Source: Eledone cirrhosa (lineage: Eukaryota). From it: 64,000 nt of DNA. The stretch lies in assembly GCA_964016885.1 (NCBI GenBank), contig OZ024743.1:2480001-2544000 (forward strand). Reading direction: 5' to 3'. Shown here in pieces: positions 850 to 40,700 of the stretch. A program made the translations under genes and the position numbers. The notes beneath the pieces are model-generated. The model made no database searches, was not told the DNA's origin, and saw nothing but the letters and a program-made list of their open reading frames with translations. Numbering within the stretch: the first letter of the stretch is position 1; each line of letters starts with the position of its first letter.

Positions 850-21620
<20,771 letters not shown>

Positions 21621-28695: not shown

Positions 28696-28760
28696 ATGGC
28701 TACCATCAAAATTACCGTGGAGGCCTGTAAAAATTGGGAAAAAAATGGGAAAATAGAATT
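28696..28760 (+). CDS. THOC2: THOC2 exon 1
   Basis: [23 protein letters not shown]|gtaagt. Confidence 0.88.
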
Positions 28761-31700
28761 GTAAGTAATATATTATTGATCTCTAATTTTATATTTATCA
28801 TCCACAGCGACATTGCAATCATTTCAGACAGCCTAAATTAATGTTGTAGTTATGACGGTTATATATATATATGTATACACATACAAATATATATTTATAT
28901 ATATACATCCTTGCATACATACAGGTACATATTTGTGCTACAAACGCCAAGCGGGAGTCGGTTGTTTTATGTTATTTATCAAAGAATAGACTTCATGCTT
29001 GGAACTTGTTTTAAGTTGATGCTTTTGATAAACCCTCATTAGTATTTTGCCGAACCATAGATCGTAAAACAGATTAAATCAAGCAAACATCAGTAATTTC
29101 TCTGCCATTAAGTTAGTAACAATGCCACCAAGATGACGGCATGAACGTCACAGAAACTAGTTTTCTTTTTAAAAAAAGCAAAAAAGAAAAACCTTGCCTG
29201 GAATAATTAAATGAAAGCTAATATTTAAGTTGTCAATTTTAATACATCTTCCGCCGTTAACTATGAACAGCATGTAATCTTTTTTGTTTTTGTACAAATA
29301 TCATGTGTGCGGCTTTATGTAAGAAATCATGTCTGTGATTATTATTATATATATATATATATATATATATGCAAAAAGTAAACAGATAAAGCAAACGACA
29401 CAATGAAGAAATATACTAGTTTAACGTGTTATATGCCGTCTTAATCAAAGATATGTATGACCATGCTGTACGCCGTTAATGATATAGAAAATGACAGGAT
29501 GGTCACGGCTGGAACATCGATACTAGATCTGTTGGTTTAGCAATGAACTGGAGCTGAACATCAATGCCACCAATACACAAGAAAGTCTCTACTCGTTTGA
29601 CTTGTTAGAAATAACAGCCATGTCTCCTTAAAAACGGAAGGACACACTGGATCATGAATGTAAGTGTCCTGATGTACTGACCTGAAAACGATAAGATGAT
29701 GTGCCGCAACCTATTTTATCATGTCTGCTCAACTAGGGGGCAGGCCTATGGCTACACATCATAGATCCCACCAGCCAACGAGATAGAATTTACTCAGTCG
29801 CTCTAGTTGCTAGAAATAGCTCCCAAAATTGTCTCAAATCATTCCTGTCCTTTTAAAGAGCTTGGACACATTATGTAACAAAATGACAGACTGAATTGTA
29901 GCAGCTAAAGAGTTGTTTTTTTTTTAAATATATAGTGCTGAGATTATTGAAAAATGTAGAAGGACGTTGTTGTGAGAATTGCATTTATTGTCCTAAGTCT
30001 GCTCACTCATGACAATCTCAGAGTTAAACAACATGGTCTATTACTTTTTAAAGATTTTTTTTCTTTAGCCAAATGTTTGAGTAACTTGACAAATTCCTTG
30101 CTGAATCTATACAGAGCTTCAAGGAGACAAAATATCCCTCTAATATAGCAATACCTATGTATCTTTAATACCTTTCAGGATATACAAGATATTAATGTTA
30201 TAACAACAGGCTATGATTAATTTTAAAAATTAATCATTGTAATTATTGAGACACATGTTGGCTCTGATCAAAGGTGTTTCACATATCACCATCTCGTGTT
30301 CTGAGGTATTGTATATCTCGAACTACATGCTTTGAAGTGTCCTTTCCTTTTCCAAGACAGTAAGGGCGCAATTTGAGGCAGCATTGACTGTCATTTCATG
30401 CAAGTCGAGCGATTGCGTCGATGCTCTTCTGTGTACCTGTTTTGGTATTTTGATTATCTTATTTAATACTAGTTTGCTGCCTTAAAGCAAAATTGTATAT
30501 TTATTTATATATTCAAAGCTTAGGGCACCAACTCAATTCTTTCTGTTGCCTTTTCTCACTCTCCTGTTAATGAACAATCTCTCCCACTGATAGATAAGTA
30601 TCTATAGTCGCTTAAGTAGGAGTGTATGTATAATAGTAAGTAGTACATTTTTTACTGGGCTAAAAGTGCAGACTAGTTTCGATGTTCACTTGTGAGCTTG
30701 TCACAGTAGTTAAATGCATTTAAATACCCTACATGAAACTGCCCTTTTTTCTACAAAGCTGTTTGTTATAAAATGTTTATGATTATTTTTAAAATGTTTC
30801 ATCACAATTTTAGGTTAGAACCTTTATGTTCTGAACATCTGGTTCTACAATACAAAACTTTGTTTTAAAGTGTGTATTTATCTAAAAAATCTTGTCATGT
30901 TATGCAAGAACATTTATGTTCCAAACACCAGCTTAATAATGCGAAAGTTAGTTATTACAAAAGCGCTCCAAATTCTTGATTATTTTCAAAATTATTCGAA
31001 AATCTTATACATTGTCTTTCATTAGAAATATGGCTATGGAAGGGTTTAAACGACAGTATTTTAATTTTGTCAACACGAATTATTCTTGTGAAATGTTTTT
31101 ATGATCAATATCTGCGTGTATGTTAGTTGGCCGGTTGGCTAGCTGTTGATGCTCTTACATTCTGATCTTTGGTGAATTTTATTTTATCTGTATTTATTTG
31201 TTTATTTAAACAGGTTTCAATAGTTTTGTACTTTTCCATATTTTACTATTTAAAAAAAAACAACAAAAAAACAATTATACTATGGACTCGATTTGGGGGG
31301 GGGGGTTGTTAAATTTGTTTTACCGCCCCAGCCGAACAAAGTTTTATCGTTGCTATTTTATAATTTAGACAATTAATTGTTGGACATAGAACAATGTAGA
31401 CGATTGTGTATTTTATTTACATTATATTCCCTTCGACTTATCGATTTCCAGTTTTTATGTTTAGTAGAAGAGCGAATAAAAAGTATGAAACGTTTTCGTG
31501 GCCATATTGTATGTTTTCTTCTCGATATTTTATAAACTTCCTCCTTGATCAAATAGCGTGCTCTGATGATAGATCGACAGATAAGGAGATTATGTAAACC
31601 TATAAAGTATTAATGGATAACTTTCAAAAGTTAAGTTGCATGTGTATTCTATTTGTTAAAACCCATAAATCTGAGCTATGTTTATCATTTAACAGTATAA

Positions 31701-34700: not shown

Positions 34701-37700
34701 AAGTTCACTCATCTGGAAAAACGAGTTGCGACGTCTCTGGTGCCAAGCTGTAGTGGCTTTTGCCTTTCTCTTGAACAACATTGGTGGTGTGCATGGGCAG
34801 CTACTAGTCTTCCACAAAGGTACTTGCGAGATGTAGACGTTTACAACAGAATTACAGAAGATAATACAAGATTCTACTGAAAAATCATGGGCATCGAACA
34901 AATAAGCAATGAAAGCATTCACATGACAATTAAGCAACATGTGGGCAACCGCAAAGACCTGCTAACCACTGTAAAAAAATGAAAAGTGAGATGGTATAGT
35001 TGTGTGACAAGATCTGATGGATTGATCAAGACTATCCTCTAAGGAACAGTTCAGGGACAAAGAAGAAAAAATAGATGGTTAACATCAAAAAATGAACTGA
35101 TAAAGACTTTGGTTGAGACATTCCTTTTTCTTTTCCAACACACATAAAACTAATAAGTGTACTTGCATATATATATATATAATCCTTTTATGTCCGATTT
35201 TCTGTATTTGTGTGGGTTGGATGGGTCTTCCAGTACAACTTCCCTCCACCTACTTTGTTCCTTCATCATTTTGTCAGGTTGTGTTTTGAAATCTACTCTC
35301 ACCAATTCTTTCTAAGTCTTTTTTGGTCTTCCTCTACTGCAGCTTCCTGACACCTTCTTCACCCATACACATCAGTAGTCTTCTCTTTGGCATATTATAT
35401 TCAGTTCCTCATATAGCCAGTTTTTCTCTCAACCCAGATATGCTTTGCTATTCATGCAAATTAACATCACACAGTCTTCATTTCTCTCCAGAACTTAGAA
35501 TCAAAAGAGTAAATTTAGCAAAAACCAAAATATTAAGTAGGAAAGAAGATAGGGCACCAATCCCATTAGGGAAGTGGCTTTGCTCGATATGTAGAAAAGG
35601 AGAAAGTATTAACTCTATATAATGTACATGATGCAAATCTTGAGTACACAAGAGGTGTAATGGGATATCAGGCAGGCTAACAGGAAAGGAAGACTTTGTA
35701 TGTGGTAGATGTTCAGGGACATTTGCTAGTAAGAGTCATCACCGTTTTACGTCCATTCTTCCACGCTAGTTAGATGGGTTGTCCTGTTGTGGGCAATGCC
35801 AGGTTAGGTAACCATGTCCTGCTCATACAGAACTGATTTTGGCTTGATTTCTACAGCTGGATGTCCTTCCTAACACCATTAATAATAATAATAAAATACA
35901 TAATATAGACCTTTTCCAATCCCAGGAAGGATCCATAGAAGTGGTTTTTACCTTCTGTTACCTAGATGATATACTTAGCTGTGGAGGAGGGTGATTGGAG
36001 AGCATAGTAGCTAGAATAAGGACAGGATGGAAGAAGTTTAGGGAACTGCTACCCCTGCTAACAACAAAAGTTTTCTTCGTACAAATGAAAGGTTATTGTA
36101 TGATGCTTGTGCGTGAAGTGCTATGCTGCATGGTAGTGAGATGTGGACAGTGAACGCTGAGAACATGCGATGGCTAGTGAGAAATGAAGCAAGCATGTTT
36201 CGATGGATGTGTAATGTTAATGTGTGAGAACGACAAAGCATGAATGAACTGAGAGAGAAACTAGGTATAAGAGAAATCAGAAGTCATGTGCAGGAGAGGA
36301 GATTGTGTTGGTATGAACATATGATAGTTTGGTGAAGATGGGTCTAGTAATCCCAGTCGAAGGAAGCCACAGTAGAAGTTGGGAGAGCTGATCTCAGATC
36401 GCTGAAGCTTACATAGGAGTTGACAAAGGAACACAACAAGTGAAGAGATGCTGTACTGAGAAGGACACATCCAACCCATGCAAGCATGTAACAACAAACA
36501 TAAAATGATGATAATATATGTGTGTGTATATATATAATTTTTTTTTTTTTCTTCTTTACAGCATTAAATTGTGCAAAGGAATTAGCAATGTTTCAAATTT
36601 AGAGACTTCAGATTTGCCATTCCACAAAGCTTTATATGATTTGTTTATCAGTGTTGTACGAGGGTATATGAAACCTGATCATGCTGTTTCAACAATAACA
36701 GAAATAGTAGTAAGTATTCTTTTTTGCTTATTTCAGTTCATGTGATATTTTTTAATACTTTAACAATAAACGGTAGTAAATTGGCAAAGTGGTTACAAAA
36801 TACTTTGTGCTCTATATGAAAGCATGTACAAATGTTATGATATTATTCACTCACAGATACATTTAGGTATCCACCATGTTAAGAGCAAAAACAAATTTTG
36901 TCTTTTTTATTTTCGACAAAGCTGGCCGCCATAAAATCACTTGGTATGCAAATGAGGCTAATCAGCCAATGTATACATTTGAGAACACTATGTGGGTAGC
37001 AGTAATGAGCAGAATTCACAATCTTGACAAGGAGCAAGAGACTCAGAAACAATTGTCAATTGTTTTCTCTCAGCTACTGCTGGAACAAAAGGATGACATT
37101 GTTATCTTTACCACGTGGTGTTTTATGACGCTGTTTACTTGTAAACAAACCGAATATTAATAATTGTTTCTACTTTTGGCACAAGGCCAGCAATTACTCA
37201 GTACATTACTGGTACTTTATTTTATCGACCCCGTATGGATGAAAGGCAATATTAATGAAAACCGAATATTAATAATGTTATGATATTATTATAATATTAT
37301 TATTATTATTCACTCACGAAAACATATATGTCTTGCTATGAATGTCTTAAACTGTGATCTTGTCAGCTATCTCAGCAGGCATGTGAGAATGCCAGACACT
37401 AATGTTTCAGGATCTTTTAATCCATCATCAATGACATTTACTCGCTCGGTATTGAGGCAAGAATAAACTATAGCTTACATACAACTTTATTACAAATCAC
37501 ACTATGTTAGTGCTACTAATAATTAATTCCAGCCAAGTTAAGCATACACTGTATGCAGATGTTTTAAACACAAAAAGTACTGAATAAATGGCACTGATGA
37601 TGGATTGAAAAATCCTAAAACACTAGTGTCTGACGTTCTCACACAGCTACTGAGATATTTGTAACATGATCATAGCTTAAGACATTCATAACAGGACTTA

Positions 37701-40700
37701 TTTATATTTATCGAACATAAACATATTTTATATGCCTTCATATACACCTCTATTATAAATCACGCTATGTTATTACTGGTGATAACTTTGTATTCTGAGC
37801 TCAAATTTTGCCAATTGGCAGAGTAGTTAGTGTCTAACAAGTTGTTTTGTGATATTTGTTCTGACTCTTTATTCTGAGTTCAACTTCTGCTGTGGCCTAC
37901 TTATGTGGTCGACTTAAGCCAACAAAACACTCATCAATCTCACAGGGCTTTAACTGTCTACAGTGGTGAAATATGTCACCTGTGGGAGTTGCACTTAATT
38001 AGAGTTAATTGGATTCAGTTAATGGATGAGTCTTGTTTATAAACAGTATGTTAGATCTCTATTGGTTCTGATTTACAAGTCTTCCAATTGTTTGACCAAC
38101 TAAACAGCCTGCTCATTAAATTAACGATTAAGTAGCTGAGCAGTTTACAGACCCAAGAACCTTTAATGTAGTTCTCGGTAATTGTGTGTCATAAACTAAT
38201 TTTTTCCAGCTGAGTGAACTAGAGCAACATGAAATAAAGTGTCTTATTCAATGACACAATGTCCTCCAGGGAATCTAACTTATGATCTATGAGCTTGCAA
38301 TCATGAGTAAAATGTCCTACCCACTATGCTATGTTCCTTCACTGACACAATATAGTGACCATGGTATGAAACCACTAATTTATTGGCTGGTTTTCCATTA
38401 CCAAGTTCACTCAGACATCCATGCTCTCATTTTTTAATATATTTATTTTTTATTGGTTTGTCTAGTAGGGTTTATGCCTATGGCCATCACAGCCACTCTG
38501 AGATCAATGTTTTTTGTCTAGAGAAATGGGCTGTGCTTATGGCCATCACAGACTCTTTCAGATCAATTAGTTATGTCTAAGGCTATCACAACTCTCAGAT
38601 CAAATGCCCGTGACACTCAAAGGCTCTCTCAGAACACTGGTTTATCTAGAAGGGTCTGTGCCCGTAACACTCACAGGCTCTCTCAGAACAATGGTTTATC
38701 TAGAAGGGTCTGTGCCCGTAACACTCACAGGCTCTCTCAGAACAATGGTTTATTTAGAAGGGTCTGTGTCTATAGCCATCACAGACCCTCTAAAATCAGA
38801 GGAAGTGGCTATGTGTTTTCTCTGAGATAGGAATAATCGCTGTAGTTAACATTCCTCTTCTAGAGGATCAATATTTGGGGGAAGAAGTTTTTGGTGTAGT
38901 GCTTAGTATGTGTTTGGTATAGTGGACACAATATGGGTTACAAAAGGAAGAAAAGTGAGGCAGGTGTGCCAATGGGGTGGCATAAGACCAATCAGCTCTG
39001 AGGAGCAGAGACCATTGTAGAGGAGCAAGAGCTTAAAGTGTGATGGTGAATAATTTAATGCCAATCACTCAAGTGCCCTTAGGATGCAGTCTAGGATATC
39101 TGTGTAGCAGCAGCAGCACCATTCCATATGTAGGACCAGTACTCCATTGTGAGTCTAGGACATCTGTGTGTAGCAGTAGCAGCACCAGATGTGAGAGTGA
39201 TACTGTATTGTGAGTCTAGGATGTTATTTAAACTTATGTTTTTTTTTTCCTTAGAACATCTGTTGCTTGGATATTATTGATGAGCAATTTCATATTGATA
39301 TTTTAATATCTACCTTTTTTTTTTCTAGGACTTCCACAAAGAGCTACCTTCATTACTTGCCAGCATTCTCAGCATAATAGGTAAGGGAAAAAATTCTGTT
39401 AAATTTCTTCTTTTTATTCTACCAATGTTAATAGAACTCAGCCTAGATTAAATTTGGCAATGCTTTGCAGAAAGTAGCAAAATATCAAACTGAATTTTGA
39501 AAGTAACTGGCTTCAACATGTTTGTTTTTACTATGAAAATACCCAAGCAAGTTGGGCATATAAGTCCCTGGAGATGGAAAAAGTGAACATTGTTGCCTGT
39601 GGGAGTTGAACTAATACCTGACGCATGTCGGATAGCTGTGTTACCATTACACCAAAACGTGATTGACCCCTTACCCATCATTTCTAAGCCATATCTATCA
39701 GCCAATGGATGTAAACAAAGAATCAGTCATAGTCAGTAGCATTGAGCAAATTTTGTTCGGTTATTTTCACAAAGAATTTTGAAGCAGCTTATTTTAAGTT
39801 AACATACTTTCAAAATTGAAAATCTGCTCAAACATCTTGAATATGATTAATTCTTTGTTTATCAAACTGAATATTAAAAATGTTATTGAAAGAATTCTGT
39901 AGCTATTGCTGCACACTGTTTCATGAAAAGCAGTTGTAACATCATGAGAAGGAACCTCATCATAGCCAGTTTCCTGTCATAATTGGACTTGACTGTGGCA
40001 ATGGCAAACTCCTCGACAGATTAACCCTCTTCCCTTTTGAGGGAGGCAATGATCTTCTGCGACTCATTCTCTACTTCCAACCTTGTTATTCGGCCATGAA
40101 CCCTGGCTCTGCTGCCCACAATCCAGAGGAAAGGAAGATAGTTAAACACCAGGGCCTAACAGACTTCTTGGTCCCTGCACTGCTGATTTCCTCTGTAAAA
40201 TTGGAAAGATGATGGCCCGCTTGAGGAGGGAGCCCCATGAGGTGGGGTTGCTGTTGCAGCATGTGACTCTGGCCATTCTCTGCAGTAATGCCTTTGCTAT
40301 TTTGTTTGCGGGGTGCAGCTGAGGCACCACTCAAACAGGGGTGTAGTGTCTGACCCTCCTTTTGCTTGATTCTTTTTGTTTTTTTTGTTTTTGTATAAAT
40401 AGCTTTATAAAATAAAATGAAACACTTATTTAAAAAAAAAGAAATGGAAGGTTATAAGGATTAACAATTTCTACGTAGATTATTGCTACATTGTCTTTTC
40501 TTTGTCTTTGTGAAGAATGTGGTATGTTCTAAAACAGTAACTCACCACATGGTTCTTATATAAAATAATGTTGACAGATTTTAAAAATTTAAATAGGAAC
40601 CCATTAATATGGGTGGTTTTGATTCATAGAACCAGAGCTGGTTTTGGATAGGTTGTTATTGGGATAGTTAAATAGGAACCCTTTAAAATGGTGGCTTTAT

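Follow-up and report, generated by a model that had tools for sequence, protein, structure and literature searches.

What is the inverted repeat that lies inside the THOC2 gene of Eledone cirrhosa, and how did it come to carry two sequences resembling hammerhead ribozymes? The window studied here, i.e., 64,000 nt of contig OZ024743.1 from a genome of 3.0 Gb, had received a first-pass annotation that described two inverted arms, each with a hammerhead, around a spacer. We propose, with a probability of roughly two in three, that what remains at this locus is a degraded copy of a ~310-nt tandem hammerhead repeat, one that was inserted by a reverse transcriptase (RT) of the Penelope-like element (PLE) type, had its own U6-type promoter and a cycle of RNA circles, and is now inactive.

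The gene context of the repeat is clear. THOC2 is on the + strand, with Pfam THOC2_N matches in the later exons, from 43592 on. Three coding exons, which we take from their likeness to be those of THOC2 (the first being its N terminus), join in phase: exon 1 (28696..28760, from the ATG to a phase-2 GT donor), exon 2 (36562..36709, bounded by AG and GT and phase-compatible with both neighbors) and exon 3 (39329..39380), all on the + strand. A candidate exon at 31450 was phase-incompatible and was dropped. Since the exons join in phase and THOC2 is on the + strand, the element lies in the second intron between coding exons, bordered by exons 2 and 3, and its right arm is in the sense of the pre-mRNA, just as had been proposed.

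The arms are there, but the element is not built as two arms around a spacer. Positions 37368-37443 and 37582-37657 are inverted copies of each other (76 nt, 83% identity), and a second inverted pair is found at 37319-37363 and 37664-37708 (45 nt, 80%). However, the putative spacer is unit sequence, as 37479-37522 recurs at 37742-37785 (79.5%). The actual extent is 37320-37785, past the previous end at 37696 of an element that had been drawn from 37330. Searches with a profile of natural copies resolve the locus into two pieces, whose matches overlap by ~20 nt. The first consists of 1.15 units of the ~310-nt repeat with two internal deletions (37475..37785, +; nhmmer 240 bits, profile columns 30-390 of 391), and the recurrence given above is its terminal redundancy. 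The second is an inverted, 5'-truncated copy joined to it head-to-head (37494-37320, -; 158 bits, columns 137-314), as the inverted repeats also indicate. The locus is thus one decayed full unit with a head-to-head inverted fragment, not a pair of terminal repeats around a spacer. Nor is the two-armed form the design of the family: most copies are pieces of the tandem unit in a single orientation, and the core is present in both arms at 7 of 146 loci. In each of three runs, all from one sample that is possibly the assembly's own, one short-read contig covers 37316-37759 without differences. There is no ORF of at least 70 aa over the element. The alternative raised at the outset, terminal inverted repeats (TIRs) of a DNA transposon with a target site duplication (TSD), does not fit: no TSD was found at the THOC2 copy, where the longest shared word is 7 nt, and therefore the copy is not a DNA-transposon TIR pair. 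The family also lacks the mark of MITEs and other DNA transposons, i.e., fixed-end TIRs in most copies together with a TSD, as no inverted partner is present at 63 of the 80 anchor loci.

Both arms have the hammerhead layout described previously: stem I, a CUGAUGA-type core, a GGAU/AUCC stem II, GAAA, stem III and C17. Absent from that description is an unpaired U on each side of stem II (U10.1·U11.1). The hammerhead in sense to THOC2 (type I; 37587..37637, +) has its CUGAUGA at 37594-37600, one G·A mismatch in stem I, the U·U at the base of stem II, a palindromic stem III and the lesion G12>A at 37617. The column map predicts the cut after 37630, the position expected earlier. Its antisense counterpart (type I; 37388..37438, -) has C3>U at 37431, so both core lesions are where they were first seen, and a C>T at 37402 that makes its stem III, which had been called palindromic in both arms, imperfect. 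Neither arm has the complete type I core (C3 U4 G5 A6 N7 G8 A9 / G12 A13 A14 / A15.1-U16.1 / H17), and both hammerheads are predicted to be inactive. A covariance-model search had been suggested as a check, and with Rfam it found no hammerhead family in 36500-38500 at E values up to 10; the putative hammerhead identity rests on motif, family and covariation evidence, not on Rfam. The + strand of the element folds into one long hairpin (z = -13), and a MIR2606 match from Rfam (38.6 bits, cut-off 139.7) reflects this hairpin. Because the arms pair with each other, stems I-III of the sense hammerhead are unformed in the folded full element (pairing probability ~0), and in the THOC2 pre-mRNA such pairing would mask the sense ribozyme. 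The hairpin expected in this pre-mRNA (37310-37790, +; -152 kcal/mol) is also a candidate substrate for A-to-I editing.

To what family does this fossil belong? Searching with the THOC2 element brought up 866 candidates, of which 40 were scored and gave 84 matches, and a second family copy brought up 1424 candidates, both totals being first-look counts; a 22-mer outside the ribozyme had 80 exact matches in the genome and none in the control. The family has many hundreds of copies. From 154 fetched loci we dropped 8 duplicates and built the 391-column profile with natural copies among the remaining 146. Columns 21-78 recur 313 columns later, and ten pairs of same-strand hammerheads are 270-334 nt apart (three more, at 719-1342 nt, are separate insertions); the repeat is thus a tandem one with a unit of ~310 nt. 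Upstream of the unit, full-length copies have the preceding unit and not an ORF. With a non-coding tandem unit within the 150-450 nt of non-LTR retrozymes and one type I hammerhead in each unit, the family qualifies as a non-LTR retrozyme, i.e., a non-autonomous PLE derivative. The active form of such elements has two consecutive intact hammerheads on the same strand; the THOC2 copy has one on each strand, both lesioned, and few copies fit this strict tandem definition because most hold fewer than two ribozymes. A few old loci (L045 and L154) have two ribozyme regions behind the first promoter region and could be past source copies.

The copies were inserted in the manner of PLEs. Next to the main piece there is an inverted piece at 17 of the 80 anchor loci and a tandem piece at 12, and across the 146 loci 49 junctions are head-to-head and none is tail-to-tail. 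Among the 199 pieces of at least 60 bits (two satellite loci having been dropped), the 3' end falls within columns 360-391 in 117. These ends peak near 361 and 390, the second peak being in part the edge of the profile; the 5' starts are spread. Near the cut site there are only 3 ends and 9 starts. This combination of 5' truncation, partial tandems, head-to-head inversion and a preferred 3' end is the Penelope-type pattern, for which PMC8557442 describes partial tandems, an inverted 5'-truncated copy and a tail of 30-40 bp. The median divergence of the copies from the commonest letter of each column is 11.7% (9.4% and 10.4% for the THOC2 arms), by which measure the family is old. The suggestion that the locus is a relic of a non-autonomous ribozyme-bearing retroelement family, here with Penelope-type inversion, is supported.

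The ribozyme is best seen at the level of the family. The main subfamily, with 87 of 137 rows, has the sequence CUGAUGA, U, GGAU/AUCC, U, GAAA, ACACUAGUGU, C. Its commonest letters give the full type I core, in line with the early idea that the consensus would restore what each arm has lost. A strict descriptor, with 10.1 and 11.1 paired, does not describe the family, as 91 of 132 rows have U·U there. This U10.1·U11.1 is a published natural variant (PMC3088659), and the axolotl HHR_Amex2 has the same U·U at the base of stem II (PMC7229834). Another subfamily, SA (29 of 137 rows), shows CpG decay at positions 4-5 and at 10.1, with A at 11.1, and has an 8-nt palindrome in place of the 10-nt one; its median divergence is 13.1% versus 11.7%. 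The pattern of decay implies an original C at position 4 and a C·A at the base of stem II; U4C is known as a natural variant of low activity (PMC3088659). When five short natural copies were folded as monomers, the form of minimum energy was not the catalytic fold, as expected from the weak stem III.

Among 14 natural copies (12 distinct) from four families, a hand-picked and related set, 95.9% of the stem cells are paired, compared with 29-45% in slid controls, and double changes are found at 8 of 13 pairs. The stem covariation sought at the outset is therefore present across the families; within the family of the THOC2 copy the changes are mostly CpG decay, not compensation. In 61 anchor-selected rows, and leaving out CpG-like columns and positions 4-5, the ten core columns have 65 changes against the 88.8 expected from the flanks (P = 0.005). 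Since core columns are less mutated than flanks, this suggests that variation among the source elements was lower in the core than outside it. The copies themselves have decayed: among 80 main-subfamily rows (the 87 minus 7 dropped for gaps) the core is intact in 24 and has at least one lesion in 56, and among the 61 anchor rows, all subfamilies included, it is intact in 6. C3>T is present in 11 of 138 rows and G12>A in 8 of 138. As only 24 of 80 comparable copies are intact, two lesioned arms in THOC2 are the expected outcome, and this copy is predicted to be an ordinary dead fossil that lost its promoter boxes and its cores by neutral decay.

The genome contains further hammerhead families. 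A relaxed core pattern has 2,103 genomic matches and none in the control, and nearly all of those listed belong to a younger sister family (L235-L264) with a ~437-nt unit, an A·A at the base of stem II and a near-identical stem III. A third family (L231:7959-9580 and L310-L338) forms very young tandem arrays of 456-502-nt units joined through a (TA)n tract, and these arrays do show the active form of retrozymes. A fourth (L311 and L339) was detected by the promoter pattern alone; its hammerhead, 57 nt past the TATA box, pairs A with U at 10.1-11.1 and has a stem III palindrome of 6 nt. An unrelated young family (L155-L184) has a canonical Hammerhead_1, with 19 of 74 matches exceeding the Rfam cut-off, and shows inversions as well as (TA)n ends. 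An RT-like frame follows it in L184, so that it is probably an autonomous PLE. We found no nucleotide likeness between the RF00163 (Rfam Hammerhead_1) family and the family of the THOC2 copy. Another locus, L220, combines a 938-aa ORF with two candidate hammerheads in inverted orientation to each other, whose core is CCGA.

How could such repeats be transcribed? All four families share an octamer-type box and a TATA box, ~90 and ~50 nt upstream of the ribozyme; in the first three, the octamer-type box, ATGCAAAT, is 88-93 nt and a TATA-like box 47-51 nt upstream of C3. In the family of the THOC2 copy the octamer is exact in 36 of 90 rows and has at most one mismatch in 72 of 90; of 30 sister-family loci, 16 have it within 130 nt, and in 11 of these it is at -90 to -93. 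Host genes have such a pair of boxes too. Of 12 distinct sequences upstream of U6, which come from 3 genomic loci, 9 have an octamer-type box at -76 to -78 (the other 3 sequences lack it), with a TATA box near -31, and the one RNase MRP gene has both boxes. Upstream of U1 the octamer-type box is absent from that position in all 8 loci examined of 14 fetched, and 47.8 kb of flank contain no combination of octamer and TATA box. In the genome, 20,141 sites match the two-box pattern, compared with 12 in the control. We fetched 30 from the 100 that were listed, and all 30 lead to a hammerhead 47 or 57 nt past the TATA box, intact in 27 cases; 28 belong to the third family and two to the fourth. Because the matches are copies of few families, they represent at most four independent promoter events, and the four families may share an ancestor. 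On this evidence the boxes are likely to be a built-in promoter matching that of the host U6 and RNase MRP, not U1. At the family level the upstream box and TATA box are those of a type 3 Pol III promoter as in U6 and MRP, but their spacing is not, being 41-42 nt in the repeats versus 45-46 nt in U6/MRP; in insects, such spacing is tightly kept (PMC1761439). In the family of the THOC2 copy the boxes are not more conserved than the flanks (87 changes versus 94 expected, P = 0.25). In two side observations, most U6 genes are in a ~1.8-kb tandem array on C19 (the U6/MRP loci being L265-L294 and L309), and the U1 genes share an AATCAGT-like box near -58 (L295-L308).

The THOC2 copy retains remains of these boxes at 37552..37579 (+), identified from an alignment with other natural copies. 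Half of the octamer is lost to a deletion of 17 nt after 37556, and a 30-nt deletion after 37579 removes the whole TATA box and the predicted start site. The inverted copy has a degenerate TATA-like box (37474..37482, -; columns 148-156), its octamer having been truncated away.

The unit structure, the tandem dimers, the inversion pattern, the core, the cross-family covariation and the boxes common to U6 and RNase MRP are features of the genome; for the cycle that connects them we infer transcription, double cleavage, circularization and reverse transcription around the circle. Transcription from the U6-type promoter of each unit would begin ~15-25 nt upstream of the hammerhead. If the copy is a tandem, the RNA would extend to the next hammerhead and undergo two cuts, aided by the pairing of palindromic stems III in a dimer, and the cut RNA would then be closed into a circle. 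Reverse transcription around this circle by a PLE enzyme would begin at a preferred site, 120-155 nt beyond the cut, and would restore a ribozyme preceded by its promoter. Linear retrocopies lose an external promoter, whereas here it could be kept because reverse transcription would run around the circle; such copying would also explain why the cut-site junctions are intact.

The element and its promoter could also have been propagated from a linear multi-unit RNA in the manner of SINEs, probably produced through leaky Pol III termination at T-runs or by Pol II, with the ribozyme trimming the 5' end and no circle being formed. T6 and T7 runs are present between successive hammerheads in the young sister and third families, and thus Pol III would stop before the unit is complete; some 3' alignment ends do coincide with T-runs, at +205 to +214 in 7 of 28 cases in the sister family and at +359 in 5 of 28 in the third. 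Moreover, satellite 2 of the newt is transcribed by Pol II from an snRNA-type promoter (PMC2220036). The family of the THOC2 copy has only a T4 in its unit, and on the sense strand of 118 rows its T5+ runs are fewer than its A5+ runs (30 versus 123). It argues against a linear template in that it ends at columns 355-391, where there is no T-run. The cut site is spanned intact in nearly all copies, and abundant circles have been reported for the retrozymes of mussel, coral and axolotl (PMC7229834). We therefore regard a linear template as unlikely, though it is the first alternative to consider.

If a PLE moved these repeats, is there one that could have encoded them? PLEs with RT and GIY-YIG are abundant in this genome (150 scored of 10,596 candidates). 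Four such loci (L224, L225, L228 and L233), which presumably belong to a Neptune-like clade, encode an RT, a CxxC linker and a GIY-YIG domain, and have, ~380 nt beyond the ORF, a hammerhead with the U·U. No RT/GIY-YIG ORF between PLE terminal repeats (pLTRs) was found beside the THOC2 element, in line with the first impression that it has no coding partner in the window, or consistently beside family copies. In the search for linked ORFs that had been advised, tblastn of 97 frames from PLE-bearing loci against the 146 loci returned mostly other repeats and no consistent ORF, and none of the 20 long-ORF PLE loci has the family of the THOC2 copy or the promoter boxes in its own terminal repeat. 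One candidate (L195/L215), taken for a PLE with a matching hammerhead, was a sister-family insertion beside a PLE on the opposite strand. These results bear on another explanation, in which the repeat is no more than a 5'-truncated pLTR from an autonomous PLE now extinct, with the boxes being the promoter of that element or a chance likeness. The insertion signature is identical, the hammerhead with the same U·U follows the ORF of Neptune-like PLEs at 4 of 20 loci, and retrozymes are held to derive from pLTRs (preprint 10.64898/2026.07.22.740005). We consider this explanation improbable, as the unit is preceded in full-length copies by another unit and not by an ORF, no ORF was consistently found next to the family in the tblastn search, and the hammerheads that are linked to ORFs lack the octamer.

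The idea that selection inactivated the sense ribozyme in THOC2 intron 2, or that its hairpin was kept for a role in the host, is very hard to sustain despite the strength of this hairpin and the depletion of retrozymes from Xenopus introns (preprint 10.64898/2026.07.22.740005), because 56 of 80 copies are lesioned anyway, giving a probability of about 0.5-0.67 that both arms would be, the divergence of both arms is within the family range, the hairpin masks the sense core in any case, and the antisense arm is equally broken, by a lesion for which no selection through the THOC2 RNA could account.

The proposed promoter-bearing retrozyme, multiplied through RNA circles, can be compared with known elements. 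The non-LTR retrozymes of metazoans (Cervera & de la Peña 2020, PMC7229834; Li, Clavereau & Pollet 2026, preprint 10.64898/2026.07.22.740005) have the same non-coding, AT-rich tandem unit of 150-450 nt, the same single type I hammerhead in each unit and co-occurring PLEs. In contrast, the family of the THOC2 copy is old, dispersed, mostly smaller than a dimer and frequently inverted head-to-head; its stem III palindrome is longer (8-10 nt) and its units contain U6/MRP-type boxes. Retrozymes seem to harbor no promoter, according to a 2020 review in which read-through is assumed (PMC7761336). With pLTRs and their minimal hammerheads (PMC4209133; PMC8557442) the family shares the 5' truncation, the partial tandems, the inverted 5'-truncated copy, a tail of ~30 nt (the distance between the 3'-end peaks at ~361 and ~390), the palindromic stem III and an extra nucleotide after A9. 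It differs from them in lacking an RT/GIY-YIG ORF and in having a stem I of 7 bp and a stem II of 4 bp, which is not the minimal type. Newt satellite 2 and the schistosome Sm-alpha repeat are also tandem hammerhead repeats with an internal promoter of their own, read by Pol II in the former and of the Pol III kind in the latter (PMC2220036), but the boxes found here match U6/MRP rather than U1 and include a TATA box. The boxes resemble the type 3 Pol III promoters of the host U6 and RNase MRP genes, with the same octamer-type box, followed by NAG and a GTATA-type TATA box; the boxes of the repeats differ in lying closer together, as given above, and inside a mobile unit. What is new is thus the presence of U6/MRP-type boxes in four families of retrozymes, the newt and schistosome repeats being the precedent for promoters as such (PMC2220036). 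In the literature covered we found no description of octopus retrozymes or of a U6-type promoter in them; supplements and most subscription papers were outside this scope and could list these families. The main text, as available, of a 2026 octopus repeat annotation does not contain the words "hammerhead," "retrozyme" or "promoter" (PMC13282606).

These families could have a common history. Somewhat against the odds, we suggest that a radiation of at least four retrozyme families, with over 20,000 copies, captured an external U6-type promoter from the host and kept it through ribozyme-driven circularization, while tolerating core variants (U·U, A·A and C·A at stem II; U4C). If true, this would be a class of self-promoting retrozymes that solve by means of RNA circles what retroviruses solve by means of LTRs. 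With U6/MRP boxes at a fixed distance from the ribozyme in four families, the transcription of animal retrozymes becomes testable on near-identical young arrays. Tens of thousands of such promoters, if active, would supply small or circular RNA in sizeable amounts. The boxes would then also define a compact (~80 nt) U6-type promoter for this group of animals, which could be useful for the expression of guide RNAs.

The surroundings of the THOC2 copy hold other features. Just left of it there is a direct duplication of ~24 nt (36831-36854 and 37274-37317), the second copy of which is enlarged by TA repeats; it brackets an insert of ~420 nt with pieces of a very abundant repeat, and is perhaps the TSD of that insert. 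A 54-nt minisatellite (38454-38798) is found just 5' of THOC2 exon 3, and a TMEM144 exon (19113-19694, +) lies upstream of the gene. Finally, a frame with an RT and a PHD finger occupies 15320-17239 (+; Pfam RVT_1, E = 3.5e-32), and just upstream of it, at 15177, there is a motif resembling a hammerhead core.
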